A stretch of DNA of 63,501 nucleotides, the filler included, from an uncultured Methanosarcinales archaeon (GTDB lineage: Archaea; Nanobdellota; Nanobdellia; Woesearchaeales; DSVV01): NCBI GenBank assembly GCA_964593285.1. It is 4 parts of 4 records of this genome, joined end to end, with 100 filler letters (N's around TTAATTAATTAA, not from the genome) between each part and the next. Parts side by side here need not be neighbours in the genome. Positions count along the whole stretch, not along the records: positions 19,081 to 44,840 come from CAZQHZ010000016.1; 3 more parts are not named here. One strand, given 5' to 3'. Under the pieces are notes generated by a model that was given only the letters and a program-made list of their open reading frames with translations, ran no database searches and had not been told where the DNA came from. The number at the start of each line of letters is the position of its first letter. Positions within the stretch are counted from its first letter, which is position 1. Shown piece after piece: positions 5,221 to 27,457 of this stretch. Both the position numbers and the translations under genes were made by a program.

Positions 5221-5236
5221 TTTATTTGTTTTTAAA

Positions 5237-6817: not shown

Positions 6818-6930
6818 TAAAATTTATATTTTGTTATTATTTTAGGATTTTAATCACAAAATATATAAATGTAATATTTAAGTTTTAATAATAAATAAAA
6901 TAGTTTACATATGTTTTAAAAATAAAAAAA

Positions 6931-9900
6931 ATGAGGTTTAATTTTTTTAATAAAAAAAAAAGTATTTTTTGTTTTATTTTTTGTTTAATGTTAGTTATTT
7001 TTGTAACTTCCTTTGCTTATTCAGAAAGTAGCCAAGGATATTGTGCAAATCCTTTTGTTAGTCCTGCTTCATTATTGTGTAGTGATTCAAAAATTTCAAG
7101 AGATTTGTGTTGTCCTGAAAATGTAAATTATTATGATGAAGGAAATTTTATTGAAACACGGGAAGAATGTGTTGAAAATTATTTTTTTGAAGAAAAAAAT
7201 GATATATATGAAGAATATTGTTCTGTTAAGTGTTGTCTTGATTCTTCAGAAACTGATTGTGATGAGATTTATAAAATAAAGTGTTTGGGTGAAGAAGGCA
7301 CACCTTCTGTAAATGAAACTTGTAATAATGCAGGGGTTAATGATTTACCTAAATGTATGCAAGGGTGTTGTTGTTATACTCAAAATGAAATAGATTTTTC
7401 AGATATTATGTCTAATAGTAGATGCGATGAATTTGATGGTAGTTTTGATAGTACAATAACTAATTCAAACAATTGCATGGAAATTTGTGAAATTGAAGAT
7501 GAAGGTGTTAGTGGGTGTTATCCTGAGTGTGATGTTGGGTATGAATGTATAAATAGTGAATGTGTTTATATTGAGGATGAAGAAGTGTGCGATCCATGTG
7601 AGGATTTTGATTGTGATGGTGAATGTGATTTATTTTCATCTTGTCCGATTGATGAATTTTTAGTTTCTAATTGTAATTGTTTTGGAAGTGTTTGTGGAAG
7701 TGAAAAATATTGTTGTGATGGGATTGGATGTACTAATTCTCCTTGTAGCTCTGCAGAGTGTAGTTCAGATATTCCTTGTGGTACAACTAATGATGAAGGA
7801 TGTCCTTTATTTAAAAGATGTAGGATAGATAATACTTTAAGTGCTGTGTGTGAACCACGGGCTGATTGTGGTATGGAATTAGAAATATGTGATACTCCAG
7901 AAGATGATAATCAAAATGATTTAATCAATTGTCAAGATAGATTTTGTCATGATGTGGTTTGTGCAAATTCAGAAGATGATTATTCAAATTGTATGGACAG
8001 GGGGTATTTTGATCATAATGATGAAAATTGGAAATGCTGTTACAATGGGCCTTTGCAAGACTGTAATGAGGATGGAGTTAAAGATACTTGTGGGGCTTGT
8101 AATTGTTTATTATTAGATCCTTTGCCAAGTCCAATACTTAAAAATATAACTTTAATTGGAAATAAAGATAAATTAAAAATTGAATGGTCACTTAATTGTG
8201 AAATTGATTTTTATTTGTATAAGTGTGAAGGTGAATCTTGTTCATCAATTGAAAATTTTGAACAAATTAAATCAACTAGTGAAAAAATATATGAAGATTC
8301 AGCCATAAATTATGATACACCATATTGTTATTATGTTTCTGCAATTTATCCAAATGAAGTTAAAAATTCAGACATTAAATGTATTGACGGTATAGATAAA
8401 ACTTGTATGGGAACACCACATACAAATTTTTGTGTTGATGAAAATAATGAATTTAAATCAAGGTTAACTAAAAGAGCAATTTGTGATAGTAAAGGCCAGT
8501 TGATTATTTCTGAAGATTGCACAAATAAGGGAGAAGGATATATGTGTAAAGGTCCAAATTCAGGTGGGCAAACTACTTGTCTTATTACAGATGATTGTGA
8601 TAATTGTGGTGATCCATTTAATGTTTTTGCATATTTTGATAAATCAAAAACGCTTGATAAAGACTTAAATGAAGTTTTATGTAAGAATTTAGATAGTTGT
8701 TTTTATGATTTTTCTTCTTCTTCAGTTGATTATTTTAGAAGTTGTTTTGATGTTCGAAGTTGTTATGATTATAGAAGTAAATTTGCATGTGAAGAACAAA
8801 ATTTAAATGATTTTAACAATAAATGTCTTTCAAGGAATTGTGAATGGGTTTTTGTTGATGAAGAATTAAATCAAGGAATTTGTAGAGAAAAAAATCCACT
8901 TCATAATAGATGTGAATTATGTAATAGTAATGAATTTAATGAAGTTTTTGGTTTATGTAATTATGAAAAATGTGAATTATTTGGTGATTGTGTTTATAGG
9001 TCAAGCGATGGTTTATGTATTGATTCATATGGGATGGAATGTAATGATTTTTTAACACAAACGCATTGTACTGGAGGTAGTAATTTAGATATGGATATTT
9101 CTTATAATTCTGAAGGAAAAAGAATTTCTGGAACTAACGAGATAATTACAAGAAGTGCTGATGTTGGTGGAATTGGTCTTTGCAGATGGGATAGTACTAG
9201 AAGTGAAGGTGATAAATGCTATAAAGATGCAAATTTTGATGAAAGTTTAGATCCTTTAGGTTTTATAGATTATACGCCACCAAAAACAACAATTGTTTCT
9301 CCAGATAAAATGAGAAATTTAAATATTTCTTTTCATGTATCGGATTTAGCAGGATTTGGTAAACAAAATTCAGGAGTTAATGATTATGATGTTTTCTTCT
9401 GTGTTACTAAACAAAATGAAGATCCTTGTTATCCAAATAAGCGACCTAATTTTATGGAAAATAACAATGGTTGGTTTTATGAAAGTGTTGATGATGGAAA
9501 ACATAATGTATATTTTTATGCAGTAGATAATGCAAATAATTTAGAAGTAGTTAAAAAATTTGAAGTTAATATTGTTAAAAATGGACCAGAAATTACATTA
9601 AATGCACATACTTATTTATATGAAGATAGTGGTGCGGTTTTATTTGAGATTATTTCACCAGAAAATTTATTTTGTTCAGATATATTTTTTAAATCTGAAA
9701 CTGAAGAACTATCTAATTTAGAAAATTCATATGGGGATTATTTTCAATCTAGGTTTTATGATTTGGATGATGGTTTTTATCAATATGCAATTTCATGTAT
9801 AGATGAATTAGGAAATCAAATTACTGAGGAAAAAACAGTTAGAATATTATTTGATCAATCTATCTTTGAAGTTTTACCTACAGGGGTTTTAGATTTAGAG

Positions 9901-12900
9901 GAAGTTGATTTAAATTTAAAAACACGTATTTCTGAATGCAGATGGTCTTTTGAAGATATTGATTTTGATGATATGGATAATAATTTTAATTGTCAAGAAG
10001 GTGTTATTGATTCTGAAACATACTATGATTGTGTTGATACTTTTAATCCTACAGAAAGTAAAACATATCATATCCATGTTGCATGTAAAAAAAATAATCA
10101 AATAAGTAAAGATAAAATATTATTTGTATATGATAATTCATCTCCAACAACTAATATTGTAGATTCTAATGATAATTTATTTAATTATTTTGCAGCACAT
10201 ACTCCAAGTTCACTTAATAATAGTTTGTTTTTAAATTGTACTGATTCACCTAGATTTGGTTTTGGATGTAATTCTTCATTTTATTGTCTTAGTAATCAAG
10301 GTTATTGTAATCCTAACATAAAAGTATCAAAAAATAAGGCTATAAATTTTAATGTTACATCTTTTAATAATTTAGTTGTATGTTTTAATTCTAAAGAAAA
10401 TGTTATTGATGGTATGGGCGGATTAACTGAAACTAGAAAATGTTATGATATGGATAACGTAGATGTGGATGATCCAATTATTAGTGTAATGGACACATTA
10501 AAAAATTATGACCAAAGTGATGATCCTCTTAGAGTTCATGAGTTGAATTTAACAGATGATAAATTTTTATTATCTGGTATTGTAATGGATCCAGATGTAT
10601 CTGATGTAAATTTATTAAATAATAAATTAGACCTAATTGTTAAACACAACGGTACTCAAAATTCATATTTAAATATCGGAGCAAATCCAAATTTTGAGCA
10701 AGAAATAGTTTTAAAAAAAGGTGGTATTAATACTATTGAACTTAGAGCTAGGGATAGATCTAATAGTTTTTCAAATATTTATTCGTATTATATCTCTTAT
10801 ATTGATTATTTTGGAGATAAAATTTATTTATTAGAACCTTTATTTGGTGTATCAGATTCTAAACAATTTGATCTATTAATTGAAACTTATAAAGGTGCAG
10901 ATTGTAGATATTCACTAATCGATGGAGGTTATAATTCTGCAAAACCTATGGATAAATTTAATGAAACAAACAACCAACACACAATATTTTTGAATTGGGA
11001 GCATTTTTCTGAAAATTTAAAACAAGAGATTTTTATTTATTGTAAATTTGATGGTGAAAATTTAATTGATGAAAAATCTTTTTATTTATCTTATAATACA
11101 AAAGTTCCAAAAATTGATCTTTCTATAGATAATTCAGTTTTTGGTTTAATTCCTTTAACTATTGTTGAGCGACCATTTCAAACTAACATAACAGTTAAGT
11201 CTGATGTTTTAGTTAGATGTAAATATACTACTTCAAAAACTGTTTCATTTGATAATATGAATAAATTTGATGGTTTTGATGATGGGTTATTTAATACTAC
11301 AAATGTATTGTCTATTACTGATTTAGAAGATAATAAAGGTTATACATTTTATGTACAATGTGAAAATGAAGCATTAAAAAGATCAAAAAAAGAAAAAATT
11401 TATTTTGAAATTGATAGTTCAAAAGATCCCGGTATTCATTTAGTTTCTCCAAAAAGTCCAACAGCGAATAATTCTTTTAAAGTTAGTGTTAGAACCTCTA
11501 AATTAAGTTTGTGGTGTAAACTTAAACAAAAAGGTAATGAAGAGCGAGAGATGGAAGAATTAACTAATTATGATTTTATTTCACACACAACTTTTAATGT
11601 ATTAGATGGAAAAAATGATTTTTCTGTGAGTTGCTTAAATAATGATGGATTGTCTTCACAAGATTTTAAGATAATTGTTGATACAAAAAAACCAAGTACG
11701 CCGCTTGTAGAAACAGATTCAAAAACCAATAAAAAAGATTATTTAAGTGCAAAATGGTCCGTAAATAAAAGTATTACAGATATTGTATTATATAATTATT
11801 CAATAGGTAAATCACCTGGCGCTCATGATGTTTTTAATTGGACAACTACTATTAGGACTGATGAAATGGTTACTGGATTAAATTTATCTGATAAAATTTC
11901 ATATTATTTTAATGTTAAAGCAAAAAGTGAAGTTGGGCTTTGGAGTGATATGGGTTATTCTAGTATTTTAGTAGATTTTGAAAGTCAAACAAATGGTACA
12001 AATGAAACTCAACCTGATTTATGTAGTAATGGTGAATTGAATTCAGATCATGGTGAAACAGATATTGATTGTGGCGGGCCGTGCGAAGAATGTGGATTTA
12101 ATCAGTCATGTATTTTAAATTCTGATTGTATGTCTGGTGTTTGTTTTGAAGAAAAATGTGCTATGCCTAGCTGTGATGATGAAATAAAAAATCAGGATGA
12201 AACTGCAGTTGATTGTGGTGGAAAAGTATGTGATTCATGTACTGAAGGTAAAAGTTGTAAAAAAGATGCTGATTGTATTACTGAATTTTGTCATCCGTTA
12301 GATAAAAAATGTCTTTATGCAGCATGTGATGATGAATATATAAATTGTCATATTGATGAATATGGTGTAAGAGATTGTGAGGAAGGAACTGATTGCGGAG
12401 GACCATGTGAACCATGTCCTGAAGATTCTGGTGATGTTTGTTATGTTAATGAAGATGGTGAAAACTTACTAGATAGTGATTGTGATAAAATTCCTGATGA
12501 TTGGGAAGAAATGCATGGATTAAATCCAAATGATCCAGACGATGCACTATTGCCAAATAACGATAATCCAAGATTAACTAATTTAGAAGCATATAAAGAA
12601 AATATAAAAAGATCTGATGAACTAGAACCATCAAAAGATAAATCTAGTTTATGGTTTATTATTTTAATAATTTTATTAATTATTATTTTATTAATTGCTT
12701 TATTAATAACTTTATATTATGCATTTTATGATAAATTTCCATCTAAATATAGGTTCGTTATAGATAGTTATATAAATAAAATAAAAAGTTATTTTTTAAA
12801 CTTAAAAAACGAAATTTTAAAAAACAATTTTTTAAAAAATAAAATATTTAATAAAAATTCAAAAAAAGAGAATTCTTATCAAAATAATTCATTTAAAGAT

Positions 12901-13245
12901 TATGGTTTTAATAGTGATATTGGAAAGTTTAAACCAAGGCAGGATTTTAATGATTCATATTCAGCAAAATTTATAAAACCCCAAAAAATTAATAAACCAA
13001 TTAATGTAAAAATTGATGATTCAAAATATATGGATGTAAAAAGTACTAAAGAAATGGTTAATTTAATTAGAAAGGATAGAAATGAACAAATAAAAAAACA
13101 AGCTGAATTAATGCAAAAATCAAAACCAAAAGAAAAACCAAATTTAAAAGATTTAAATGTTAGAAAAAAATCATTGTATGATAAAATTAGTGATAGTTTT
13201 GGAAAAACTGAAGAAACTGAGAAATTAAAAAAAAGATTAAAATGA
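6931..13245 (+). CDS. Giant Cys-rich single-pass surface adhesin-like protein (2104 aa)
   Basis: Sec signal; Cys-rich N-half; FN3/Ig-like segments; three DCGG-type Cys repeats; DSDCDKIPDDWE Ca-binding-like motif; TM LWFIILIILL...; basic cytoplasmic tail. Confidence 0.85.
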   Translation: MRFNFFNKKKSIFCFIFCLMLVIFVTSFAYSESSQGYCANPFVSPASLLCSDSKISRDLCCPENVNYYDEGNFIETREECVENYFFEEKNDIYEEYCSVKCCLDSSETDCDEIYKIKCLGEEGTPSVNETCNNAGVNDLPKCMQGCCCYTQNEIDFSDIMSNSRCDEFDGSFDSTITNSNNCMEICEIEDEGVSGCYPECDVGYECINSECVYIEDEEVCDPCEDFDCDGECDLFSSCPIDEFLVSNCNCFGSVCGSEKYCCDGIGCTNSPCSSAECSSDIPCGTTNDEGCPLFKRCRIDNTLSAVCEPRADCGMELEICDTPEDDNQNDLINCQDRFCHDVVCANSEDDYSNCMDRGYFDHNDENWKCCYNGPLQDCNEDGVKDTCGACNCLLLDPLPSPILKNITLIGNKDKLKIEWSLNCEIDFYLYKCEGESCSSIENFEQIKSTSEKIYEDSAINYDTPYCYYVSAIYPNEVKNSDIKCIDGIDKTCMGTPHTNFCVDENNEFKSRLTKRAICDSKGQLIISEDCTNKGEGYMCKGPNSGGQTTCLITDDCDNCGDPFNVFAYFDKSKTLDKDLNEVLCKNLDSCFYDFSSSSVDYFRSCFDVRSCYDYRSKFACEEQNLNDFNNKCLSRNCEWVFVDEELNQGICREKNPLHNRCELCNSNEFNEVFGLCNYEKCELFGDCVYRSSDGLCIDSYGMECNDFLTQTHCTGGSNLDMDISYNSEGKRISGTNEIITRSADVGGIGLCRWDSTRSEGDKCYKDANFDESLDPLGFIDYTPPKTTIVSPDKMRNLNISFHVSDLAGFGKQNSGVNDYDVFFCVTKQNEDPCYPNKRPNFMENNNGWFYESVDDGKHNVYFYAVDNANNLEVVKKFEVNIVKNGPEITLNAHTYLYEDSGAVLFEIISPENLFCSDIFFKSETEELSNLENSYGDYFQSRFYDLDDGFYQYAISCIDELGNQITEEKTVRILFDQSIFEVLPTGVLDLEEVDLNLKTRISECRWSFEDIDFDDMDNNFNCQEGVIDSETYYDCVDTFNPTESKTYHIHVACKKNNQISKDKILFVYDNSSPTTNIVDSNDNLFNYFAAHTPSSLNNSLFLNCTDSPRFGFGCNSSFYCLSNQGYCNPNIKVSKNKAINFNVTSFNNLVVCFNSKENVIDGMGGLTETRKCYDMDNVDVDDPIISVMDTLKNYDQSDDPLRVHELNLTDDKFLLSGIVMDPDVSDVNLLNNKLDLIVKHNGTQNSYLNIGANPNFEQEIVLKKGGINTIELRARDRSNSFSNIYSYYISYIDYFGDKIYLLEPLFGVSDSKQFDLLIETYKGADCRYSLIDGGYNSAKPMDKFNETNNQHTIFLNWEHFSENLKQEIFIYCKFDGENLIDEKSFYLSYNTKVPKIDLSIDNSVFGLIPLTIVERPFQTNITVKSDVLVRCKYTTSKTVSFDNMNKFDGFDDGLFNTTNVLSITDLEDNKGYTFYVQCENEALKRSKKEKIYFEIDSSKDPGIHLVSPKSPTANNSFKVSVRTSKLSLWCKLKQKGNEEREMEELTNYDFISHTTFNVLDGKNDFSVSCLNNDGLSSQDFKIIVDTKKPSTPLVETDSKTNKKDYLSAKWSVNKSITDIVLYNYSIGKSPGAHDVFNWTTTIRTDEMVTGLNLSDKISYYFNVKAKSEVGLWSDMGYSSILVDFESQTNGTNETQPDLCSNGELNSDHGETDIDCGGPCEECGFNQSCILNSDCMSGVCFEEKCAMPSCDDEIKNQDETAVDCGGKVCDSCTEGKSCKKDADCITEFCHPLDKKCLYAACDDEYINCHIDEYGVRDCEEGTDCGGPCEPCPEDSGDVCYVNEDGENLLDSDCDKIPDDWEEMHGLNPNDPDDALLPNNDNPRLTNLEAYKENIKRSDELEPSKDKSSLWFIILIILLIIILLIALLITLYYAFYDKFPSKYRFVIDSYINKIKSYFLNLKNEILKNNFLKNKIFNKNSKKENSYQNNSFKDYGFNSDIGKFKPRQDFNDSYSAKFIKPQKINKPINVKIDDSKYMDVKSTKEMVNLIRKDRNEQIKKQAELMQKSKPKEKPNLKDLNVRKKSLYDKISDSFGKTEETEKLKKRLK

Positions 13246-13739
13246 AAATTTTTAAAAAAGCGGATACAGCATCTCAAGCATTTATTTACATTTTTACTTT
13301 ATTTGTAATTGCTTTTTTGTTATTTATGGGTGTTAAATGGCTTTTAAGTTTGATGGCTTTAGGTGAAGATATTAATGTTTCACGGGTTAAAATTGATTTA
13401 GAGAATTCTTTTGATTCAATAAAAACAAGGTATGGAAGCCGGGCTGTTAAAACTTTTACCATACCAAATGAGGTTAGTGTTGTTTGTTTTTTTGGAGAGA
13501 GTTATAGTGGTGGAGATATTTGTGATAGTTTAAAAGATGATTATAATCCAATACTTTGTGAGCTTGGAAAAGATCAAGGAATAAATGTATTATTTTTCCC
13601 ACTTGGAAATATCCCTATTTATTTACCAGATTTAGAAATTGCAGATGAAGATTATTTATGTTTTGATGTTACTAATGGTAAAATTAAGGTCAGATTACAA
13701 AGTCTTGGGAACAAAGTTAAAATTTCAGAACCTTCTTAA
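13242..13739 (+). CDS. Pilin-like protein, class III signal peptide
   Basis: KKA/DTASQAFIYIFTLFVIAFLLFMG; ATGA overlap with upstream gene. Confidence 0.8.
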   Translation: MKIFKKADTASQAFIYIFTLFVIAFLLFMGVKWLLSLMALGEDINVSRVKIDLENSFDSIKTRYGSRAVKTFTIPNEVSVVCFFGESYSGGDICDSLKDDYNPILCELGKDQGINVLFFPLGNIPIYLPDLEIADEDYLCFDVTNGKIKVRLQSLGNKVKISEPS

Positions 13740-13758
13740 ATTTATAATATTTTTAAAA

Positions 13759-14463
13759 ATGAGAAAAAAAAATAAAAAAGCAGTTGTTGAAATACAATTT
13801 AGTTGGATTTTTATTTTAATTGCAGGTTCTGTTATTTTATTATTTTTTGTAAATGTTGCTGGTAAATATAAAAGTTCTCAAGAAGATGCACTTGCTAGTG
13901 ATATTTTAGTTAGGTTATCTGCAATAATTAGTGCTGGGCAGATGAGTGCAAATTCAAATATATTATTAGATTTACCAAAAAATGAGATTGAAGTTATGTG
14001 TTTTCCAGAAACTTGTGAAAAAAAAGGGTGTGATACTATATTTGATTTTAAAAAAAGTAGTATCTCACCACCTGCATGGATGGATATTGAACCTATTTTT
14101 TCTAGTAGTTTTATGAAAGATGATCAGTTAATTACGTGGTCATTAGATTGGTTTACTCCATTTAAAGCAACAAGTGTATTATATTTATCTACAATTAATC
14201 AAAAGTATGTTTTAGTTTATGATACTTTCCCAATGTCGGGTAGTAGTGTGATTTCTCAAGATTTTACAGAATTTTTAAAAGAAAGGTTAGATCAAAATAA
14301 TTTTACAAATTTTGATTACGTTGAATTTGATAATTTAGAAAGTTATGAATATTCAGGAGAATTATCAACAAGATTTATTTTTTTAAATGCAGCACCTGTT
14401 AACGAAATTGATTTACATAGTAGTTTTGATAGAAATAGTAGAATTAGTGCATTGAAAATAACT
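13759..14463 (+). CDS. Pilin-like protein, class III signal peptide (3' end in gap)
   Basis: KKA/VVEIQFSWIFILIAGSVILLFF from ATG 13759; the ORF track fuses it to the next gene across Ns. Confidence 0.8.
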
Positions 14464-14563
14464 NNNNNNNNNNNNNNNNNNNNNNNNNNNNNNNNNNNNN
14501 NNNNNNNNNNNNNNNNNNNNNNNNNNNNNNNNNNNNNNNNNNNNNNNNNNNNNNNNNNNNNNN
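14464..14563. other. Scaffold gap (100 N)
   Basis: Run of Ns. Confidence 0.99.
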
Positions 14564-14568
14564 AAAAA

Positions 14569-15051
14569 ATGAAAATTATAAAATTAAAAAAATCACAAAT
14601 GAAAATGCTTGAATCTATTTTTGTTCTAATTATATTTTTTTTTATGTTAATTTTTGGTATTATTTTTTATACAAATTATAAAATTCAAAATAGTAAAGAT
14701 AGAGATTATGAATCAAGTGAAATTAGATTGATTGAAATTTCTAATAGACTTCAAAACCTTCCAGAAATTCAATGTACAATTGATGGAGTTTATGTTGAAT
14801 TTGATTGTATTGATTTGCATAAATTTGAATCATTTGTTGATTATTCAAAAGATAATGTTGGTTATTATTCAAAACTATTGTATAATTCATTTATTAATGT
14901 AACACAAACTTATCCAACAACTTTTAATCATCAAATTTATTCAAGTGGTGAAACTGATAATTTTAATATTGTAAGGTTACCTGTTAATATATATAATGCA
15001 TCATCGAAGATGAATAATTTTGGCTATATTACAATTGGGGTGTATCGGTAA
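14569..15051 (+). CDS. Pilin-like protein, class III signal peptide
   Basis: Own ATG at 14569; KKS/QMKMLESIFVLIIFFFMLIFG; LPEIQC...CID. Confidence 0.8.
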   Translation: MKIIKLKKSQMKMLESIFVLIIFFFMLIFGIIFYTNYKIQNSKDRDYESSEIRLIEISNRLQNLPEIQCTIDGVYVEFDCIDLHKFESFVDYSKDNVGYYSKLLYNSFINVTQTYPTTFNHQIYSSGETDNFNIVRLPVNIYNASSKMNNFGYITIGVYR

Positions 15052-15581
15052 TGACTAGAAAAAATGCACAAATTGAAATTGTTGGTTTATTAATTATAGT
15101 TTTAATAATTACCTTTATACTTATTTTTATGTTTACATCTAATTCAAATGAAAGTGAAGTTAATTTAGATGAAATTCATGATGTAAATTTAGCAACAAGT
15201 ATTATTATTTCAATGATTAATACAGATACTGATTGTACTTCTGCAAAACCAAGAGTTAGAAATTTAATAATAGATGCAGCAAGAGCAAATGTAACAGGAA
15301 CTTATTTTATTACTTGTACTGGTGGAGAAAATTCTTTAGTTTTTTCAAAACAAGTTTTTAAAGAAATTTTAGATAAAACAATGGATGAATGGAATAAAAA
15401 TTATGAATTTATTGTTACAAAAGCCGGAGGTGATTATAATACACCAGATGATCGTTTAATTCGTTTTACAAATTCAGATTTTGAACAAAAAGATGATGCT
15501 GAAGTTGGAATTGTTGCATTACCTTTGACAAATCAAGGTACAATCTCTATTGTTTTATGTATTGGTGGATGTGGTAGTTAA
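15051..15581 (+). CDS. Pilin-like protein, class III signal peptide
   Basis: RKNA/QIEIVGLLIIVLIITFILIF; TAATG coupling to upstream gene. Confidence 0.8.
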   Translation: MTRKNAQIEIVGLLIIVLIITFILIFMFTSNSNESEVNLDEIHDVNLATSIIISMINTDTDCTSAKPRVRNLIIDAARANVTGTYFITCTGGENSLVFSKQVFKEILDKTMDEWNKNYEFIVTKAGGDYNTPDDRLIRFTNSDFEQKDDAEVGIVALPLTNQGTISIVLCIGGCGS

Positions 15582-15582
15582 T

Positions 15583-15598
15583 CCAAAAAATTTATAAA
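15583..15598 (+). promoter_or_regulatory. BRE-TATA promoter for the two small pilins
   Basis: CCAAAAAA-TTTATAAA about 35 nt before ATG 15634, with AAGGTG Shine-Dalgarno-like sequence between. Confidence 0.55.
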
Positions 15599-15633
15599 TA
15601 ATAAAAATAAGAAAACATAAAGGTGTTATAAAA

Positions 15634-15882
15634 ATGATTAAAAAAGCTCAAGGAATGTCTTTAAATGTTGTAGTTATTGCTGCATTAGTTGTTTTAGTTT
15701 TAGTTATTTTATCTGTAATTTTGCTTGGACGAATGGGAGTTTTTACAATGGACTTAAATAAATGTAAAGGTGAATGTATGCAAAGTTATTGTGATGAAGG
15801 ATATAGTGAAATAAGTGGTAATTGCTATGATGGTAATGAAATAGATCCATCTCTTAAATGTTGTGTGGAATTAAATGTTTGA
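15634..15882 (+). CDS. Small type IV pilin-like protein (major pilin candidate)
   Basis: KKA/QGMSLNVVVIAALVVLVLVIL; short Cys-rich head ending CCVE. Confidence 0.85.
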   Translation: MIKKAQGMSLNVVVIAALVVLVLVILSVILLGRMGVFTMDLNKCKGECMQSYCDEGYSEISGNCYDGNEIDPSLKCCVELNV

Positions 15883-16135
15883 CAAAAAAGCAGTTGAAAT
15901 GTCTTTAAATACTATAGTTATTGCTGCAATTGCATTAACTATTTTGGTTGTGTTAATAATTATTGTAGCTGGAAGAATGGGTATTTTTACTCAAGGATTG
16001 GATGATTGCACAGATAAAGGAGGAGATCAAAAACCATCTGCAGCAGAGTGTGTTAATGAAGGTGGAACATCAATTGGTCCTTATATAAATAGTGATAATG
16101 AAAAGGATGGTGTTTGTTGTGTTGAAGCGAAGTGA
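15875..16135 (+). CDS. Small type IV pilin-like protein, paralog of 15634
   Basis: KKA/VEMSLNTIVIAAIALTILVVL; shared GRMG(V/I)FT and CCVE. Confidence 0.85.
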   Translation: MFDKKAVEMSLNTIVIAAIALTILVVLIIIVAGRMGIFTQGLDDCTDKGGDQKPSAAECVNEGGTSIGPYINSDNEKDGVCCVEAK

Positions 16136-16248
16136 AGTTACTAATATTATTTAGTATAATTTTATTAATTATTTATGTTTTTGATTATTATTAGTAAAAT
16201 CTAATTAATCAAAATATTTATATATTTTAATTTCTATTTTTTTATTAT

Positions 16249-16371
16249 ATGGATAAAAACGCTTCATTTGAATTTAGTTTAACTCAATTAATTACTGTGA
16301 TTGTTATTGTTTTTATTGCAGTTTTATTATTTTTAGCAGTAACTAATCTTTCGGGTATTTTATCAAATTAA
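16249..16371 (+). CDS. 40-aa micro-pilin (not in ORF track)
   Basis: MDKNA/SFEFSLTQLITVIVIVFIAVLLFLAVTNLSGILSN*; TTTATATA box at 16217-16224; ends 14 nt before next gene. Confidence 0.65.
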   Translation: MDKNASFEFSLTQLITVIVIVFIAVLLFLAVTNLSGILSN

Positions 16372-16385
16372 ATTTTAGGTTAAAA

Positions 16386-17204
16386 ATGAATAAAAAATCA
16401 CAAATGACATCTTTGATACAGATAATTTTAATTGTTATAGTTTTAGTTGCAATACTTTTTTTTATGAGGTCTTTTATATCTATAGGTGAAAAAGTTGTAG
16501 ATGATGAAATTTGTAGAACTACTGCTGCTGCAAACGTTAAAGCCAAATTTGTTGGATTGGAATTGTTTCAATTAAAATGTCCAAGAAAAGTAGTTCATTT
16601 TTATGAAAATGGTTATAAAATGTATTATTCATCTAGAGATATTGTTGATATTGAAAAAAAAGAATTTTATAAAAGGTTTAATTATGATGGTGATGATAAG
16701 TTATTAAAAAATGAATACTATGAATTGCTTGCAGATGAAATGGCTGGTTGCTGGTATAAACTTGGAGAAGGTAAGTACAATTTTTTTAAAGGATTAGTTG
16801 AGGGTAGAGCTACAAAAGCACAAGGTTGTATTATTTGTAGCGATATTATAAATCATGTTGATAATATTGATTTTAATCTTTTAGAATTTAAACAATTTTT
16901 AAAAAAAAATAAATTTACAAAATATGGGAAAGATGTTTATTATTATGATTATTTAGAATATGATTTAATTCAGGAAAAAGTAAAAATTGCGAATTCAGAA
17001 GAAAATGATTATATGTTTTTTGATCCTGATCTTATTGATCCTGATGTTATTGATTTAAAAGATTTTCCTTTATTTATTGATGATAGCAATACTTTTAATT
17101 TTTTGATTACTTATAATGTTATTTCAATAAATGCATTTGAATATTTTTTTGTTTCAATTACAAATACAGATTATAATGCTTATTTTTGTGATACTATAAA
17201 ATGA
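16386..17204 (+). CDS. Pilin-like protein, class III signal peptide
   Basis: KKS/QMTSLIQIILIVIVLVAILFF; LADEMAGCWY...CIICS core. Confidence 0.8.
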   Translation: MNKKSQMTSLIQIILIVIVLVAILFFMRSFISIGEKVVDDEICRTTAAANVKAKFVGLELFQLKCPRKVVHFYENGYKMYYSSRDIVDIEKKEFYKRFNYDGDDKLLKNEYYELLADEMAGCWYKLGEGKYNFFKGLVEGRATKAQGCIICSDIINHVDNIDFNLLEFKQFLKKNKFTKYGKDVYYYDYLEYDLIQEKVKIANSEENDYMFFDPDLIDPDVIDLKDFPLFIDDSNTFNFLITYNVISINAFEYFFVSITNTDYNAYFCDTIK

Positions 17205-18091
17205 AAAAAAAAGGTGAATTAAATAAAATAATTGTATCGTTAGTTTTAGTTTTATTTGTATTATTTATTTTATTTATTTTTTATACTGATTTGTTTGAGA
17301 CATTTTATGATAAAAAACATAAAAATGAGTGTAAGCAAGCATTATATATGGCTTCATTATCTAATATTAAAAATAATGATTTTTTAAATTTTTTTGGTGG
17401 ATTTGGTTCTGGTAGTGATTCTGGAAATGTTCCTTGTAAAATTAATGTAAAAAAAATAACTACTGGTGATAAAGAAGATGTAAAAAAAGAAATTGCTAAT
17501 TTAATGTATGATTCTTGGGATATGATGCATATGGGACAGCTTGATTTTGTTTCAGGTAGAAAGACTGAAACTTATTGTATTATTACAGATGTAATTGAAT
17601 TTGAAGATGATTCTAAAAATATTGGTGAAATTGATAATTTTTTAGATTATTTATCTGAAAAAAAAATTACAAATCCATCTTTTGAAGATACAACATATTT
17701 AGAATATTTACAATGTTACAACACTGTAAGTAAATATTTTGATGATAAGATAATGATTGAACATGATTTTGATTTTAATATAGATACTAATCAAGATTAT
17801 GCAATTATGTTTGTTTATTCAAGGGAGGGATATTTACATAGAATATGGGCTGGGATGAAAGGTGCTGGTGCTGGTGGGGTAATTGGTGGTGTTTTAGCAG
17901 TTAAATTTGGAGCATTAACCGGTGGTGTTGGTATTATTGTATTAGGTGTTGCTGGTGCGGGTATTGGTTATGAAATAAATCCTAGCGTTGGTGCTGATTG
18001 GAGTTCTTGTATTATATTAATACCATATGAAGAAAATTTTTTATCTGAATTAAATTGTACTTATATGCCTGGAATTTTTGATACAAGATAA
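17201..18091 (+). CDS. Pilin-like protein with glycine-zipper hydrophobic hairpin
   Basis: KKG/ELNKIIVSLVLVLFVLF; core similar to 16386; GAGAGGVIGGVLAVKFGALTGGVGIIVLGVAGAGIG. Confidence 0.8.
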   Translation: MKKKGELNKIIVSLVLVLFVLFILFIFYTDLFETFYDKKHKNECKQALYMASLSNIKNNDFLNFFGGFGSGSDSGNVPCKINVKKITTGDKEDVKKEIANLMYDSWDMMHMGQLDFVSGRKTETYCIITDVIEFEDDSKNIGEIDNFLDYLSEKKITNPSFEDTTYLEYLQCYNTVSKYFDDKIMIEHDFDFNIDTNQDYAIMFVYSREGYLHRIWAGMKGAGAGGVIGGVLAVKFGALTGGVGIIVLGVAGAGIGYEINPSVGADWSSCIILIPYEENFLSELNCTYMPGIFDTR

Positions 18092-18124
18092 ATTTAAATA
18101 TAATAAAATTAATAATTTGTTAAA

Positions 18125-18271
18125 ATGAAGTTAAATAAATTTGCAGAAATGCCTTTTTGGCTTGTAAAAATGGTTATTGCTTTAGCATTATTATTAATTT
18201 TAGTAATAATAATAACAACTATAAGTGGACATAATTTTGAATTTTTAGATTGGCTTAAGAGTTGGTTTTAA
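18125..18271 (+). CDS. 48-aa micro-pilin (not in ORF track)
   Basis: MKLNKFA/EMPFWLVKMVIALALLLILVIIITTISGHNFEFLDWLKSWF*; stop 1 nt before next ATG. Confidence 0.7.
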   Translation: MKLNKFAEMPFWLVKMVIALALLLILVIIITTISGHNFEFLDWLKSWF

Positions 18272-18272
18272 A

Positions 18273-18980
18273 ATGTTTAAAAAAAAAGCCATGGAAGTTA
18301 AATTTTTAGTTGGTATGATATTGGCTTTATTAGTTTTATTTATTTCTATATCTATTTTTACTAAATATTCAATACTTGATAGAGTTTATGAAATTGGTTG
18401 CAAGGAAGGATACCAAAAAATGTGTGATAAATTAGATCCAGCAAAACAACATTATCCTAATTCAATAGTTAATGCAAGAGATGACTGTTCAAGTCAATTT
18501 AATTTAGATGCCGATGAATTTGAAGATAAAAAAAATAAATATTTTAATTTAGCTTTTTATGAGGATGAAAATTATTTGTTAGAAAAAATAAGTCTTTGTG
18601 TTTATGAAGATTTATTAGAAAAATCTAAAGATCCTTCAATTAATGTAAATCAGCTTATTGATATGGATTTATCTTACTCAAAAACAGATAGTGTTCATAT
18701 TGCTAAAAGTATGGATGAATGTTTAAAAAAAGAAGAAGATAATGGATTTTATATTCAAATGAATGAAATAAAATATAATTATTTAAAAGAAAGTCTTATA
18801 GATATTAAAGAAAAATCAGCAGATAAATTAGATTTATTAAGTAAATTATTTAATTATGTAGACTGTAGTATTAAAATGTTATTTGACCAAGGTATTTTAA
18901 ATTGTGATAAGAATAGTGAAAATTATTATTCTATACTTTGTGAACTAGAAGAAGAAATAAATGAACAAGATGAAAAAGAA
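18273..18980 (+). CDS. Pilin-like protein, class III signal peptide (truncated by spacer)
   Basis: KKA/MEVKFLVGMILALLVLFISISIF. Confidence 0.75.
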
Positions 18981-19080
18981 NNNNNNNNNNNNNNNNNNNN
19001 NNNNNNNNNNNNNNNNNNNNNNNNTTAATTAATTAANNNNNNNNNNNNNNNNNNNNNNNNNNNNNNNNNNNNNNNNNNNN
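18981..19080. other. Artificial contig linker
   Basis: 44N-TTAATTAATTAA-44N. Confidence 0.97.
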
Positions 19081-22844: not shown

Positions 22845-22859
22845 TTTTTAATAAAATTA

Positions 22860-23339
22860 TCAATTAATAATGTCTTTTACTTCTTTAAAAATTTTTATAT
22901 TATATTTACTAATAAAATTTTCAAGTTCACTAGTAAATAAGTGATGTTTGTCTTTTGTTAAAATAACTGAATTTGTTTTGATTGCAGATGCAACTAAAAC
23001 TGCATCGCTTGGATCGTGAATGTGTTTTAATAAATTTTCATCTATGTTGTTAATAAAATCCCTTTGTTTTTTTATTTGTCCTAAACTTACATCTATATTT
23101 AAAATATCAATTTGTTTTTCTTTAAAAAAATCTCTGACTTTATGTTTTAAATTATGTTTAATACTATGAGTTACATGGATTAATTCTTCTATATTAAATG
23201 AAGTCATAGAAAAATTAATATTTTTAATAGTACTATGCTTGTCTTTTTTAATAATATCTATAAAAAAACAAGTATCAAACAATATTAAATTCTTTGAATT
23301 TAAATCAATATAATTAAATTTATTAAATATTTCTTTCAT
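22860..23339 (-). CDS. PIN domain protein
   Basis: LFDTCFF, EEL, DPSDAVLVA, LTKDKHH acidic pattern. Confidence 0.8.
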   Translation of the reverse strand: MKEIFNKFNYIDLNSKNLILFDTCFFIDIIKKDKHSTIKNINFSMTSFNIEELIHVTHSIKHNLKHKVRDFFKEKQIDILNIDVSLGQIKKQRDFINNIDENLLKHIHDPSDAVLVASAIKTNSVILTKDKHHLFTSELENFISKYNIKIFKEVKDIIN

Positions 23340-23341
23340 TT

Positions 23342-25360
23342 TTAGTTTTTTTGTTCATTAAAAAAATTTAAAGCAAAATTATATACAAGCGGTTTAAAAT
23401 TTATGGTATTATCAATTTTATTTAAATTAGGAAATTTATGATTTTTGTTTTCAACACAAAATCTAAATTGATTTTTAAATGGAATTTCACATTGATTTAA
23501 ATCATTTTCTTCTAATTGTTCCATATAATTAATATCTGCTAAAATAAATTTATCTTCTTTTTTAAATATATAGATTGAATCACTAACAAAATTTAAATCT
23601 TTATTTTTTGTAAAAAAATTAATAACTTTTTTAAAAATTCCTTCTTCATTAAAACTTAATGAGTATTTATTTTCCTCTTTTATGTCAAATTCATCATTTG
23701 AATCAAAATAATACAAATTATATTCTTTTAAAATTATTTCATTTAAATTATTATTTAAATCAACAAAAGAAATGTTTTTTTTATTATTTTCATCATAATT
23801 TATTATTTCAAAATCAATTTTTTCATTATTTAAAAAATCAATGTCTTGTAAACTTATATTGCAATAACAATCATCATCAGTTGTTAATAAACATCTTTTA
23901 ATTTTATCATATAACTCATAAAATAAATGCTCATTATTAGCATTACATTTTCTAGACCATGTTATATTTTCATTATTAAAAGTTATTATTTTTTCATCAA
24001 CACAATTTTCAATTCCTTCATTTAATTTACAATTATCTATTAACTCAATACTTTGCTTTCTAAGTTTTGTATAAAAATTAAAATCATAATTGATTTTTGT
24101 TTTAAAATTTGTATCAATTAAATAATTAAAATATGAATAATCAGTTGAATAATCAAATGCTAAATCATCTTTTTTTATATTTGATTGTTTTATGTTTTCA
24201 TATTTAGCTTCCTCGTCTTCTGCTGAAATTAATGGCATGTCTTGTTTCATTTCTAAAAAATCATATCTATAAACTGCAACAATTTCATGTTTTGCTCCTG
24301 GCCAATAAAATGAGGGTATTTTTTCAATAACTAAACCTTTACTTCCTCTGCTATGCATTATTTCACTATTCTCTTTATATATTCCAATATGACAAATTTT
24401 TCTATTTAAATTATCATGGCATGGATCAATAAATAATATATCACCATTTTTTGCATTTTTTTCAATAATTTCTTTTGTACATTTTTTATTAGTATTAGAA
24501 TCACAAATTACTTCGCCATACTCTTTTGCATATTTTAAATAATACATTTCAGCAGTTGTTCTTTCAATATTTATACCAATGTGTCTTAAATTCCACCAAA
24601 CAAACCCTGAACAATCAAACCCTGGATTTATTTCTGTTGGAATTTGTATTCCTCTAAATATAGGATTATTTTGTTTTTGTAAATTTAAAACTTCTTGATA
24701 ACTATATGGACTAATACCACCTAATTGATAAGTTAAACCATTAAAAATTTTTGCAAAATTGTATGCTGTTTCATAAAATATTTTGTTAGCATTGTTTTCG
24801 TCAAATTCGCTAATTCTTGTTTGAACTGAATCATAATTTATTAAATAATCGTCTGCTGAAGAAAAAGTTAAAGGTGTAAATGAATGCCCTTCTAATTCGT
24901 TTTCTTCATTTATATATAAATGATAATTAAATTTTTGAAATTGAGCATAATTATATTTTTCTAAATATGAATTTAATTTTAAAATAAAATAATAATTCAA
25001 TGAATTTTCCAAATCTTTTTTTTGTGGAAATGAACCATGTGTTTTAAATTTTTCACAGTTCCACAAAACAAATCCTAAGGCCTTACCACATTTTGAATCA
25101 TTTTTATATCCCCCATATTTTGATAATTGAATTAATGATTCAACATAACTAAACTCAACACTTTTATCTAAATAAAATAGAGCATCTTGTGCATTAAATG
25201 TTGTATTTAAAATAATAATTTGAAACTTTCCAACACTATCTTCAAAAGAATTTATATTTGAAGAAAAAATAACTAACAATGAGCTAAAAGCAACTAAAGT
25301 TATTATAACTAAAAATACAGGAAATACCCATCCTTTTTTGTGTTTTTTTAAATTAATCAT
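23342..25360 (-). CDS. Class III signal peptide protein with internal NlpC/P60 cysteine peptidase domain
   Basis: KKG/WVFPVFLVIITLV; YQLGG...GFDCSGFVWW...RTTAEMY...GDILF...HIGIY...MHS. Confidence 0.88.
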   Translation of the reverse strand: MINLKKHKKGWVFPVFLVIITLVAFSSLLVIFSSNINSFEDSVGKFQIIILNTTFNAQDALFYLDKSVEFSYVESLIQLSKYGGYKNDSKCGKALGFVLWNCEKFKTHGSFPQKKDLENSLNYYFILKLNSYLEKYNYAQFQKFNYHLYINEENELEGHSFTPLTFSSADDYLINYDSVQTRISEFDENNANKIFYETAYNFAKIFNGLTYQLGGISPYSYQEVLNLQKQNNPIFRGIQIPTEINPGFDCSGFVWWNLRHIGINIERTTAEMYYLKYAKEYGEVICDSNTNKKCTKEIIEKNAKNGDILFIDPCHDNLNRKICHIGIYKENSEIMHSRGSKGLVIEKIPSFYWPGAKHEIVAVYRYDFLEMKQDMPLISAEDEEAKYENIKQSNIKKDDLAFDYSTDYSYFNYLIDTNFKTKINYDFNFYTKLRKQSIELIDNCKLNEGIENCVDEKIITFNNENITWSRKCNANNEHLFYELYDKIKRCLLTTDDDCYCNISLQDIDFLNNEKIDFEIINYDENNKKNISFVDLNNNLNEIILKEYNLYYFDSNDEFDIKEENKYSLSFNEEGIFKKVINFFTKNKDLNFVSDSIYIFKKEDKFILADINYMEQLEENDLNQCEIPFKNQFRFCVENKNHKFPNLNKIDNTINFKPLVYNFALNFFNEQKN

Positions 25361-25853
25361 TTTTCACAAGCAACCCGTATATTTTTATTAATTCATCATT
25401 TTTTAAAGTAGGAATATTTATTATACAATCATATCCTTTTTTATCGTGTGGATTAACTAAATAAGCATCGTTAAGTTCTAAATTATCAGAATATAATACT
25501 ACTTTTTCATAATTTGATTCTTTTTGTATAAATAAAATTAAATCATTTAGCTGATTTTCTAAATCTTCAATATAATTTTCATCATAATATGCAAATGCAA
25601 TATAGGTTGCAAAATCTGTTTTATAACCATCAACTTCAATTGGTGTTTTTAATATTTGAGTTAAAATAATATTACAATCATAATTATTTGTAGCAACATC
25701 TATTTTAGAAACAATTTTATCATTTGAAATAGAAAAAACAATTATAAAGATTATAAAAATTATAAAAATAGCTAAAATTGCAAACACATCTATTGTAACT
25801 TCTGCAAAAAATGCTTTTTTATTTTTTATAAAATTTTTATTTTTTAATTTCAT
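25353..25853 (-). CDS. Pilin-like protein, class III signal peptide
   Basis: KKA/FFAEVTIDVFAILAIFIIFIIF. Confidence 0.75.
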   Translation of the reverse strand: MKLKNKNFIKNKKAFFAEVTIDVFAILAIFIIFIIFIIVFSISNDKIVSKIDVATNNYDCNIILTQILKTPIEVDGYKTDFATYIAFAYYDENYIEDLENQLNDLILFIQKESNYEKVVLYSDNLELNDAYLVNPHDKKGYDCIINIPTLKNDELIKIYGLLVKND

Positions 25854-25861
25854 TTTAAAAT

Positions 25862-26470
25862 CTAACTTCTTGGAATTAAAACTGTTATATTAATAAAACC
25901 TTGATTTATATTACCATCTTCATAAATATTAACATAATAAATTTTATTTTTTTTAAATATGCTTCCTGGGCCAAAATCTTCATTTTTATTTCTTTTTGAT
26001 TGCATAAAATTCATATTAGCAATAGGTAAATATGTATCAAATAAATTTTTATTTAAATAAATTGAATTTGATAATTGTTTATTATTGAATTGATATCTTT
26101 TTTTATTTTTATTTAATAAAGAAATTTTCATTGTAGCCATTTTTAAATTATTATCGTTTCCTAAATCAAATAATTCATCTAAAATATTTTCATTATTAAT
26201 TAAAAAAAAAGAAGCATTTATTGTAAATGGATAGTTTCTATTAATTGAATTATCAAAATATGATGGACCATCTAAATTTAAAAAAGTTAAATAAATTAAA
26301 TTATTAGCTTCAAGTTCAATTGTATCTATATCAAAAAAAATATACTTATTTACAACAACAACAAATGCAATAAATAAAAAACTTAACATAAATAACCGTA
26401 CAAAAACAAACATAATTGTTTTAAATGTGGTTTCTGCTCTTTTTTTTTTAATAATTTTTTTTATTTGCAT
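25862..26470 (-). CDS. Pilin-like protein, class III-like signal peptide
   Basis: KRA/ETTFKTIMFVFVRLFMLSFLFIAFVV. Confidence 0.7.
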   Translation of the reverse strand: MQIKKIIKKKRAETTFKTIMFVFVRLFMLSFLFIAFVVVVNKYIFFDIDTIELEANNLIYLTFLNLDGPSYFDNSINRNYPFTINASFFLINNENILDELFDLGNDNNLKMATMKISLLNKNKKRYQFNNKQLSNSIYLNKNLFDTYLPIANMNFMQSKRNKNEDFGPGSIFKKNKIYYVNIYEDGNINQGFINITVLIPRS

Positions 26471-26473: not shown

Positions 26474-27457
26474 TTATTTTTCATAAGTTGAAAAAGAATT
26501 TAATAACGTTCTTGAAAATTCTGTTTCAAATTTATTAATAAATTCTTCATCGTTAAATAAATCTTTTGGAATAATAATTTTAATTACAAATGAAAAATCA
26601 TAAGATGAACCAATATTACCACTAAAATAAAATTCATTATTTCCTGGAAGAATTTTTACATCAGTAAAATAATTTAAATCTAAAATTTCTTTTTGAAAAT
26701 TACATATTAATCCTTGATTTTTATCATCTAAATTAAAATAATAAATTGTTAAATCAATATCATCAATGTTATTTTTTTCAACTAAATCAATTGCAAATAA
26801 AATATTAATGAAATTTTTATTTAAATTTCCATATTTATTATTTACATCATCTATACTACTTTTTTGTAAACGATAATTATTTAAATTAATATATTTAAAA
26901 TCTGTTAAAAATAAATCAACTATTTTTTTTGAATTTTTTATATTAACTATATCAACATATTTAAATTCAGATAAAAATTTTTCATTCGCATTATTACATA
27001 CTATATCTAAATCAAACAAATTTAAATTTGCTCCAATATTAAAATTGTTTTTTGTTTTTTTAAATGTGACTACATTTGAATTTTTTATATCTTCAAAATT
27101 TTTTATTATTTTTTTATTATTAAAATAAGGATATGAACTAATTCTTGTTTTTTCATCTATATTATTAATTAAAACTTTATTATCAGTAAATGAAATTTCA
27201 AAATCATTTAAAATTGTTTTTGAGTAAGAAAAAAATAAATCACCAGGTATTGATTGAATTGTATTTACAATAAAAGAAATATCTTTTGATAATGCTTCTC
27301 TTTTAAAAGATGAATTATCTTTTACATCACTAATAAAATTAAAAAGAGCAATAGTGATTAATGATATTAAAATTATTTCAATAATAGTCCATAAAGATAA
27401 CCTAATTCCAGCTTTTTTTTTGAATTTAAAAAAATTATTCTTATTATAATTATACAT
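26474..27457 (-). CDS. Pilin-like protein; C-terminal half possibly a degenerate Amidase_3-like fold
   Basis: KKA/GIRLSLWTIIEIILISLI; fold call is by pattern only. Confidence 0.65.
   Translation of the reverse strand: MYNYNKNNFFKFKKKAGIRLSLWTIIEIILISLITIALFNFISDVKDNSSFKREALSKDISFIVNTIQSIPGDLFFSYSKTILNDFEISFTDNKVLINNIDEKTRISSYPYFNNKKIIKNFEDIKNSNVVTFKKTKNNFNIGANLNLFDLDIVCNNANEKFLSEFKYVDIVNIKNSKKIVDLFLTDFKYINLNNYRLQKSSIDDVNNKYGNLNKNFINILFAIDLVEKNNIDDIDLTIYYFNLDDKNQGLICNFQKEILDLNYFTDVKILPGNNEFYFSGNIGSSYDFSFVIKIIIPKDLFNDEEFINKFETEFSRTLLNSFSTYEK

Follow-up and report, generated by a model that had tools for sequence, protein, structure and literature searches.

An NlpC/P60 peptidase domain in an exchangeable slot of a pilin-like protein from a Woesearchaeales archaeon

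What would an archaeon in whose genome no murein or pseudomurein ligase set was found do with a peptidase of the type that cuts bacterial cell walls, and why would this enzyme be built into a protein that resembles a pilin? The question is raised by a gene for a protein of 672 amino acids (aa) in a stretch of 63,501 nucleotides, here called the window, which joins four parts of the assembly GCA_964593285.1 of an uncultured archaeon placed in the Woesearchaeales (Nanobdellota). The genome, that of a DPANN archaeon, measures 1.18 Mb at about 22% G+C and is 95.9% complete. The answer that we develop here is that the protein is probably a modular minor pilin that would cut the wall of a bacterial host or prey on contact, a reading in which we infer filament assembly, activity and lifestyle. 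It is carried by the state of the peptidase domain, by what related scaffolds hold in the same position and by the conserved locus to which the gene belongs.

The peptidase domain and the reality of the fusion

The domain is recognized by the Pfam NLPC_P60 profile over residues 242-354 (E 1.7e-15; score 57.3 bits, curated cut-off 23), which bears out the initial annotation, where a hidden Markov model search against PF00877 had been proposed as a check. No other family, and no recognized cell-wall-binding domain, was matched in the Pfam scan of the protein. The annotation had placed the domain at about 24260-24780, and its full extent is marginally wider (about 24257-24790, residues 191-368). 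The Cys, His and third polar residue that it had read from the motifs FDCSG, HIGIY and MHS are, by alignment, Cys250 (24613-24611), His324 (24391-24389) and His336 (24355-24353, the H of MHS), and each falls on a catalytic position of NlpC/P60 domains whose structures are solved. In alignments to homologues and solved structures every canonical position is filled (Tyr211, Asp249-Cys250-Ser251, Arg267, Gly306-Asp307, His324 and His336), and the catalytic order Cys-His-polar, with the upstream Tyr and the DCS and GD motifs, is unpermuted. Tyr211, Asp249, Cys250, Ser251, Arg267, Gly306, Asp307 and His324 are invariant in all 11 aligned homologues, whose domains are 34-65% identical to that of the window, and the third catalytic position varies among them between His, Glu and Asp. 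The domain is intact, and on its residues it is predicted to be a cysteine peptidase with a full Cys-His-His triad.

An AlphaFold model of the whole protein has a mean predicted local distance difference test score (pLDDT) of 70.5, and a Foldseek search with the model returned NlpC/P60 structures in all top rows (probability 1.0, template modelling (TM) score by target 0.68-0.81). The closest folds are those of CwlO, Acd33800, Acd24020, LytE and MepS, all peptidoglycan endopeptidases. With these enzymes (B. subtilis CwlO and LytE, E. coli MepS/Spr, C. difficile Acd24020 and Acd33800) it shares the unpermuted domain, the fold and the Tyr...DCSG...GD...H...H pattern. Unlike them, it sits in a pilin-like scaffold of an archaeon without detected murein genes, in a protein without LysM, SH3b or other wall-binding domain, and it has two extra Cys-containing inserts and belongs to an archaea-only clade. 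That clade, a group of 18 rows with support of 95 in a FastTree phylogeny, represents at least three families, and the other NlpC-type cassettes of orthologous scaffolds branch elsewhere in the tree (two archaeal rows, L068 and L134, were mis-cut and two were dropped). No donor could be identified among 80 bacterial loci, which are 22-35% identical to the domain over a short alignment analyzed by FastTree only. The domain is the best-conserved extracellular part of the protein, with 34-46% identity to nine distant homologues versus 15-36% for the N-terminal scaffold, and two homologues carry an added muramidase domain.

A domain of bacterial type whose G+C is slightly higher than that of the rest of the gene (0.255 versus 0.225 and 0.175) could in principle be an assembly chimera, a contaminant or a recent bacterial insert in decay, and its strain variants, with 2 silent and 4 replacement codons, show no excess of silent changes, although these are too few to judge selection. 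Against this, one contig of the metagenome run X1, possibly the source, covers the whole fused gene, run X2, which belongs to a second study, supplies overlapping contigs across it that show at least 38 single-base differences among those listed, and the fusion of scaffold and NlpC/P60 domain is also present in 11 database proteins, so the fused gene is no assembly chimera. The neighbors of the gene are archaeal (pelota, TBP and MCM), and the archaea-only placement of the domain, at the low identity to bacterial matches given above, argues against a recent insert. Shared fusions, domain tree and two-study coverage together have largely refuted such an artefact already, and we give it next to no chance. 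The open reading frame (ORF) at 23342-25360, annotated initially as a pilin-like gene, is confirmed as real on the minus strand with 672 aa, and its fusion as genuine.

The strain comparison took 38 differences, leaving out 5 more in run X2 and 2 between run X1 and the window, and none of them touches the catalytic Cys, the catalytic His or the oxyanion Tyr. In run X2 two haplotypes span the junction of scaffold and domain (24731-24847), one of which differs at 9 of 117 bases, the densest variation of the gene. The runs that hold the gene are microbial-mat metagenomes, and no RNA run was listed among them.

The slot in orthologous scaffolds

The initial annotation regarded the domain as an exchangeable cassette inside a pilin scaffold and proposed looking for M23, lytic transglycosylase and M15 domains at the same position in orthologues. 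All three were found, as were M74, Amidase_2, Amidase_3, GH73 and 3D; the same slot is refilled with unrelated peptidoglycan hydrolases, and natural empty versions exist, so the view of a cassette holds. We sampled loci from 37 relatives and from 100 further genomes drawn from the 150 best-scoring profile places, a sample that leans to close relatives. The scaffold gene itself carries a Pfam peptidoglycan hydrolase in 67 of 119 same-order loci and in 20 of the 24 from the window's family; among the remaining same-order loci, 13 have a hydrolase only in a partner gene or by motif, a contig end truncates 2, and the other 37 are without one. The cargo falls into nine Pfam groups with several unrelated folds, namely SLT (25), M23 (21), NLPC_P60 (9), Amidase_2 (8), M74 (6), M15_4/VanY (5), 3D (4), Amidase_3 (1) and Glucosaminidase (GH73, 1). 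In these domain counts some genes appear with several domains, the SLT locus L062, excluded from the 119 by a length filter, is included, and one VanY match lies slightly under its curated cut-off. Among library representatives, 45 of the 73 scanned carry a Pfam peptidoglycan hydrolase, a hand count that overlaps with the genome sample.

Most cargo sits exactly at the NlpC/P60 position between the two scaffold halves, and some follows the second half. In the empty scaffolds of L038, L086, L101 and L112 the halves are joined by a few residues, and in several genomes they are two separate genes. Well-supported sister scaffolds differ in their cargo: M15_4 in one and M74 in the other (support 99), empty and GH73 (98), M23 and an NlpC-like domain within one genus (100), and M23 and NlpC/P60 plus SLT (97). 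The underlying scaffold tree is a quick one in which 22 of 134 branches are well supported, so only well-supported sister groups were used, and a count of cargo changes over the whole tree (30 changes on 65 labelled rows) was set aside as unreliable for the same reason.

Inserts in the slot without a Pfam match (L129:3001-5025, L146:3001-5076, L103:3382-7498, L107:2941-4434 and L046:5366-7501) comprise a domain of 130-150 aa that occurs in one family, tandem cysteine-rich NlpC/CHAP-like domains and a domain that is alpha/beta-hydrolase-like by motif. Partner genes add GH25, GH3, GDSL, GDPD, NAGPA, metallophosphoesterase and PGA_cap domains. Giant multi-enzyme versions also occur (L107:4437-8870, L137:3010-6759, L152:2995-7239 and L122:1089-6302), and one partner protein of 1,477 aa unites metallophosphoesterase, GDSL, M15_4, M23 and NLPC_P60.

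Some of the cargo is degenerate. This holds for the M23 domain in the slot of L083 and for most Amidase_3-type domains in the first gene of the row described below, where 10 of the 81 orthologues scanned have an Amidase_3 Pfam match and 5 of 75 domains keep the Zn-binding GHG motif. Such cases would suit an adhesin whose hydrolase-fold domain mainly grips peptidoglycan, cutting being incidental or lost, and the known modular pilins are mostly adhesins as far as the available text of their survey goes (Raynaud et al., 2021, PMC8179133). The invariance of the catalytic Cys, His and oxyanion Tyr in all 11 homologues, together with strain differences that spare the catalytic residues, leaves the adhesin with little chance.

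The scaffold, its gene row and their spread

The scaffold is ancient and widespread in Nanobdellota. The whole-family profile matches 38 of 41 genomes, and the profile of the N-terminal 170 residues matches 249 of 301 genomes of the phylum, this one included (247 of 299 without two unpublished genomes), and 2,120 library representatives at E<=0.001. The scaffold trees group by family, which fits vertical descent; close homologues of the 672-aa protein carry the names Nanoarchaeota or Nanobdellota, and the label Woesearchaeota is attached to orthologues.

The class III leader of the initial annotation (KKG/WVFPVF) was found as a basic leader ending in Gly followed by a hydrophobic segment, MINLKKHKKG/WVFPVFLVIITLVAFSSLLVIF, which is the one hydrophobic segment in the whole protein. 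Because the motif is degenerate (the pattern matches 66 of the 1830 ORFs of this genome), the leader counts for little by itself, and its conservation in 124 of 137 orthologues weighs more. The model of an empty orthologue (pLDDT 91.7, predicted TM score 0.83) places a long first helix across an antiparallel sheet, and an inter-strand loop holds the cargo site. Its likeness to pilins is greatest for GspK (Z 5.5, root-mean-square deviation 3.0, 89 residues spanning GspK's own insert), followed by PilV (4.5), PilX (4.2) and PilB (4.0), all below Z 8, and the nearest non-self Atlas models are TadE/G-like pilin clusters at a TM score by target of 0.63-0.64, below the naming threshold. An Atlas feature search of the full protein without PF00877 gave no usable match, and for the bacterial N-methylation motif of IPR012902 there was no such Pfam match at E<=0.01. 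The 672-aa protein is likely a pilin, from leader, operon and topology rather than fold.

The gene closes a row of four class III-like genes that overlap or abut one another and encode 327, 202, 166 and 672 aa (Table 1). Two or more of the three neighbor genes were detected in 108 of the 119 same-order loci and in 13 of the 17 from other orders. In 12 of 15 long contigs from the same order, the four-gene row is immediately preceded by homologues of the cluster at 2404-19028. In the other orders, a pair of ATPase and platform genes, homologous to the pair on contig C14 of this genome, stands directly upstream of the operon in 4 of 5 loci and the platform alone in the fifth. Because homologues of the row follow either the ATPase and platform or the cluster, the four genes can be regarded as the tail of one long type IV filament locus that is broken in this genome, where the row is on contig C16 (window 19081-44840) and the cluster starts contig C2. 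Just past the window's part, contig C2 continues the locus with a 279-aa class III-like protein that has an SLT domain (L315:3564-4400, E 3.3e-5). The type IV filament machinery of the genome amounts to 3 T2SSE secretion ATPases, 4 T2SSF/TadC-type matches and 2 A24 prepilin peptidase matches.

Table 1. Coordinates in the window of the pilin-like gene, its parts and the associated filament genes
Feature	Position	Strand	Remarks
Modular pilin-like protein gene (scaffold and NlpC/P60 insert), 672 aa	23342..25360	-	Closes the conserved four-pilin row as its fourth gene; single copy in genome
Class III-like signal: basic leader to KKG (residues 1-10), predicted cut before Trp11, hydrophobic segment residues 11-33	25262..25360	-
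N-terminal scaffold half, residues 11-170	24851..25330	-	Long helix 12-81, disulfide hairpin, helix, three strands; profile A2
Inserted NlpC/P60 (MEROPS C40) cysteine peptidase domain (predicted), about residues 191-368	24257..24790	-
Second scaffold half, residues 409-505	23846..24136	-	Directly after the N-terminal half in empty orthologues; separate gene in some relatives
C-terminal scaffold strands, residues 591-672	23345..23590	-	Conserved RFC...YxFAL ending
166-aa class III-like protein, third gene of row	25353..25853	-	Conserved LRTP motif
202-aa class III-like protein, second gene of row	25862..26470	-	YPGxID-type motif conserved in orthologues
327-aa class III-like protein, first gene of row	26474..27457	-	C-terminal domain Amidase_3-type in relatives
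Upstream part of pilin locus: 938, 526, 2104, 165, 176, 82, 86, 272 and 296 aa, and others	2404..19028	+	On contig C2 in this assembly

The first gene of the row is itself a second exchangeable slot: orthologues in L051, L106, L113, L159 and L161 are of the Amidase_3 type, and SLT (L153) or M15_4 (L084) is found instead in others. An Amidase_3 relic in the window's own 327-aa protein was considered and rejected, its score not being significant. The third gene carries DUF2272 in L042 (3935-5104), and upstream genes carry Peptidase_C39_2 in L103 (8331-9716) and, in a pilin-like gene of L047 (1996-2988), a Hint/intein-type domain. The 2104-aa cysteine-rich surface protein of the upstream cluster (6931-13245) is conserved in relatives, where it stands first in the pilin cluster, and has no SLT domain; a link to the similarly sized fam00969 of Castelle et al. 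found no support in a tblastn search, which gave no match to 50 short loci around SLT/M23 matches. A complex prediction for the four-pilin row (empty orthologue set of L153) scored 0.84 with controls at 0.00, 0.00 and 0.76 and is not used as evidence. Beside the row lies a convergent pair (27575-30042) of an N-formylglutamate amidohydrolase and a 454-aa protein without significant family, which by eye resembles the glutamate-cysteine ligase type.

An RPA-like gene stands downstream of the row in 83 of the 119 same-order loci, in 46 of them within 300 bp, and in all 17 loci of other orders, in 14 of them within the same distance. Its single-stranded DNA-binding product, and the empty scaffold as the common state outside the order, would suit a pilus for the uptake of DNA or nucleotides, in which DNA capture was ancestral and hydrolases were added to free DNA from walled cells. 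RPA is, however, a housekeeping gene and lies on another contig in this genome, and no uptake channel or nuclease gene was seen in the locus (the genome itself was not searched for one), so that we see very little chance for this origin. In this genome the place of RPA is taken by co-oriented PIN and pelota genes (21789-23339), whose position is a local rearrangement and not part of the conserved row.

In other orders the fourth gene is 240-295 aa long and empty in all 17 fetched loci. When 71 more genomes, mostly from other orders, were searched, the best frames were as a rule short, and in the other-order family f81 the scaffold match is spread over short frames, each about 150-170 aa long, which may reflect a split gene. 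The supposition that other orders lack the enzymes was wrong: SLT is present in 37 and M23 in 18 of 80 such genomes (80 of the 84 were counted), and in the six loci examined (L169, L173 and L316-L319) upstream pilins of the same operon carry an SLT, M23, Amidase_2 or lysozyme-like domain. In the present genome M23 was not found at 95.9% completeness.

Two further SLT proteins are encoded outside the locus on contigs C3 (L262) and C10 (L263), one a multi-pass membrane protein of about 1,100 aa among surface-protein genes and the other a 402-aa protein with an N-terminal anchor. Contigs C5, C8 and C9 encode at least 5 class III proteins with the pattern EMGVGTLIVFIAMLLVAA, presumably archaellin-like and suggestive of an archaellum as well.

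Substrate, mechanism and known systems

The initial annotation expected the substrate to be the wall of another organism, and either a bacterial wall or pseudomurein came into question. The sole Mur-ligase match in the genome is FolC, and with a domain of the peptidoglycan-endopeptidase type the substrate would therefore be foreign, as had been proposed. The enzymes of the slot act on the glycan at N-acetylmuramic acid, on the amide bond that leads to the stem or on peptide bonds of D-amino acids, and pseudomurein contains neither that sugar nor D-amino acids, so this shared chemistry points to bacterial peptidoglycan as the target. The foreign wall of the annotation thus stands, and the cargo set replaces its pseudomurein option with bacterial peptidoglycan.

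An archaeal substrate, i.e., methanogen pseudomurein or the cell's own surface proteins, could be argued from Peptidase_C39_2 in two orthologues (L057 and L141), since a C39-type pseudomurein endoisopeptidase is known, and NlpC/P60-like folds include non-wall enzymes. The pseudomurein endoisopeptidases (PeiW/PeiP, PeiR) have a transglutaminase-like or C39 domain, often with pseudomurein-binding repeats, and the Pfam scan of the 672-aa protein matched neither of these domains nor such repeats. The slot, moreover, is shared with SLT, muramidase, GH73, Amidase_2/3, M23, M15 and M74, and the best matches of the domain in structure and sequence are bacterial peptidoglycan endopeptidases. We consider an archaeal substrate extremely improbable.

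For a minor pilin that cuts bacterial walls on contact, the mechanism could run as follows. A prepilin peptidase would cut after KKG, and the protein would join its three row neighbors in a complex at the tip of the filament, in the manner of GspK with GspI and GspJ; bulky inserts would suit such a place. The cognate motor may be the pair of a 766-aa ATPase and a 750-aa platform protein on contig C14. On contact, the NlpC/P60 domain would cleave the stem peptide or a cross-link of bacterial peptidoglycan, the most likely bond being gamma-D-Glu-diamino acid as in CwlO and LytE. The local breach would allow the biosynthetically poor archaeon to attach to and feed on a living bacterium, and swapping of cargo would track the chemistry of the host wall.

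Several observations weigh against this. The outer membrane would shield the wall of diderm bacteria, and sequence cannot tell parasitism from the scavenging of dead walls. No ATPase or platform lies within about 15 kb upstream in the 15 same-order loci, and in this genome the row and any ATPase are on different contigs. No pilin model of Pfam or NCBIfam matches the 672-aa protein or its three neighbors, a Foldseek search with the empty scaffold gave nothing at E<=0.001, and gp25-like proteins (Z 6.0 and 5.8) outrank GspK. A part of the cargo is degenerate, as described, and 37 of 119 same-order and 17 of 17 other-order scaffold genes are without a Pfam peptidoglycan hydrolase; with so many scaffolds empty, the filament does not need this cargo. 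Furthermore, all cultivated DPANN archaea have archaeal hosts, according to the available text of Hamm et al. (2024, PMC11291902).

A rival reading sees a class III-anchored surface enzyme, held on the cell or on a short pseudopilus, that would scavenge dead bacterial peptidoglycan for amino acids and sugars and need no living host. Class III signals also anchor substrate-binding proteins in archaea, as the accessible part of PMC13705601 describes for bindosomes, the partner genes hold a broad envelope-degrading set (GH3, GDSL, GDPD, NAGPA), microbial mats are rich in bacterial biomass, and this genome has two more SLT proteins outside the locus. Scavenging would nevertheless benefit little from having a single enzyme fixed at a set place in a conserved row of pilins, the surroundings of the row showed no transporter genes, and one-for-one swaps of chemistry between close sisters fit host specificity or conflict better than bulk digestion. 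It therefore seems unlikely, although with a chance worth keeping in mind, and we retain the contact-dependent cutting of a bacterial host's or prey's wall as the probable function.

The Kil/Tad pilus of Myxococcus xanthus, on which Seef and colleagues reportedly also wrote in 2021 (PMC8460266), offers an analogue in the way it works. It is a Tad-type filament with interchangeable minor-pilin tips, whose variable domains meet bacterial prey as is proposed for the cargo here; it differs in being bacterial and experimentally proven and in needing a partner like a type III secretion system, its abstract names no wall hydrolase cargo, and we liken the two by function and not by homology (Herrou et al., 2025, PMC12075869, from its available text). 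In modular minor pilins (S. sanguinis PilB/PilC, GspK of the type II secretion system, Thermus ComZ) a functional domain is likewise set on or into a pilin module, and the row position is shared, the 672-aa gene being the last of a short minor-pilin row and GspK the best pilin match of the empty scaffold. In the accessible text of Raynaud et al. (2021, PMC8179133), however, adhesion is the usual task of the modules, and S74 and M26 are the peptidases mentioned, in contrast to the rotating peptidoglycan hydrolases of the present family. That survey covered bacterial IPR012902 proteins, and the word archaea does not appear in its main text; absence of IPR012902 is expected for archaeal class III signals, so the likeness to modular pilins stands as one of working and not as membership of that census.

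Bacterial-type wall hydrolases of archaea, prominent in Nanoarchaeota, have been surveyed (Strock et al., 2025, PMC12352652), and two halophile enzymes of this kind kill bacteria (summarized in bioRxiv 10.64898/2026.07.27.741052), as far as the available parts of both sources go. The survey demanded both a catalytic and a wall-binding domain, which 175 of 3,706 genomes provided, and its main text is without the word pilin; a 672-aa protein with only NLPC_P60 and no wall-binding domain falls outside it. Its enzymes are described there as patchy and often plasmid-borne, unlike the chromosomal, fixed locus of the window. Large extracellular SLT proteins of Woesearchaeota and Pacearchaeota (fam00969, 1,947 aa, GH23 in 53%; Castelle et al., 2021, PMC8204110) and the "vampiristic" Woesearchaeota of Vigneron et al. 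(2022, PMC9723730) concern the same lineage and led to the same inference of action on bacterial walls, and large SLT proteins are also taken as a hint of bacterial hosts in the accessible part of bioRxiv 10.1101/2023.06.16.545063. The 672-aa protein differs from fam00969 in size and in having no SLT, and in the passages available of these two papers, whose main texts are without the word pili, no exchange of hydrolase families is described.

Nearer in machinery are the bindosome-type archaeal type IV filaments of PMC13705601, where a class III signal likewise loads a functional domain onto a filament machine, and the DPANN type IV pilus loci of PMC11291902, where ATPase and platform stand apart from the pilin genes in Nanobdellati, as they do here. 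In the available text, the cargo of the former serves solute binding and the words peptidoglycan and hydrolase are absent from it, and peptidoglycan is absent from the latter. A search of full-text literature, mostly open-access, found no paper on a DPANN pilin locus with exchangeable peptidoglycan hydrolases, although supplementary tables of PMC13705601 and PMC11291902 may list these genes.

Woesearchaeota form a very large group of uncultured archaea, and cultivated DPANN archaea all live on other archaea. A fixed, lineage-wide pilin locus refilled repeatedly with unrelated enzymes whose only common feature is bacterial peptidoglycan as substrate speaks far more strongly for an action of archaea on bacteria than the scattered transglycosylase genes reported to date. 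It also makes the question testable, as the domains are small and soluble and the type of cargo can guide the choice of bait bacteria. Surveys that demand a wall-binding domain overlook archaeal wall hydrolases of this class, and those slot inserts that lack a Pfam match are candidates for new hydrolases or envelope enzymes. Tentatively, and as a possibility that we would not yet favor, Woesearchaeota-type archaea and several sister orders of Nanobdellota might be ancestrally epibiotic parasites or predators of bacteria, with one dedicated type IV filament whose exchangeable tip warhead was repeatedly reloaded with captured bacterial wall hydrolases matched to the peptidoglycan of the host. 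If this were true, the type of cargo would predict host range, and the filament would be an archaeal contact-dependent machine against bacteria.

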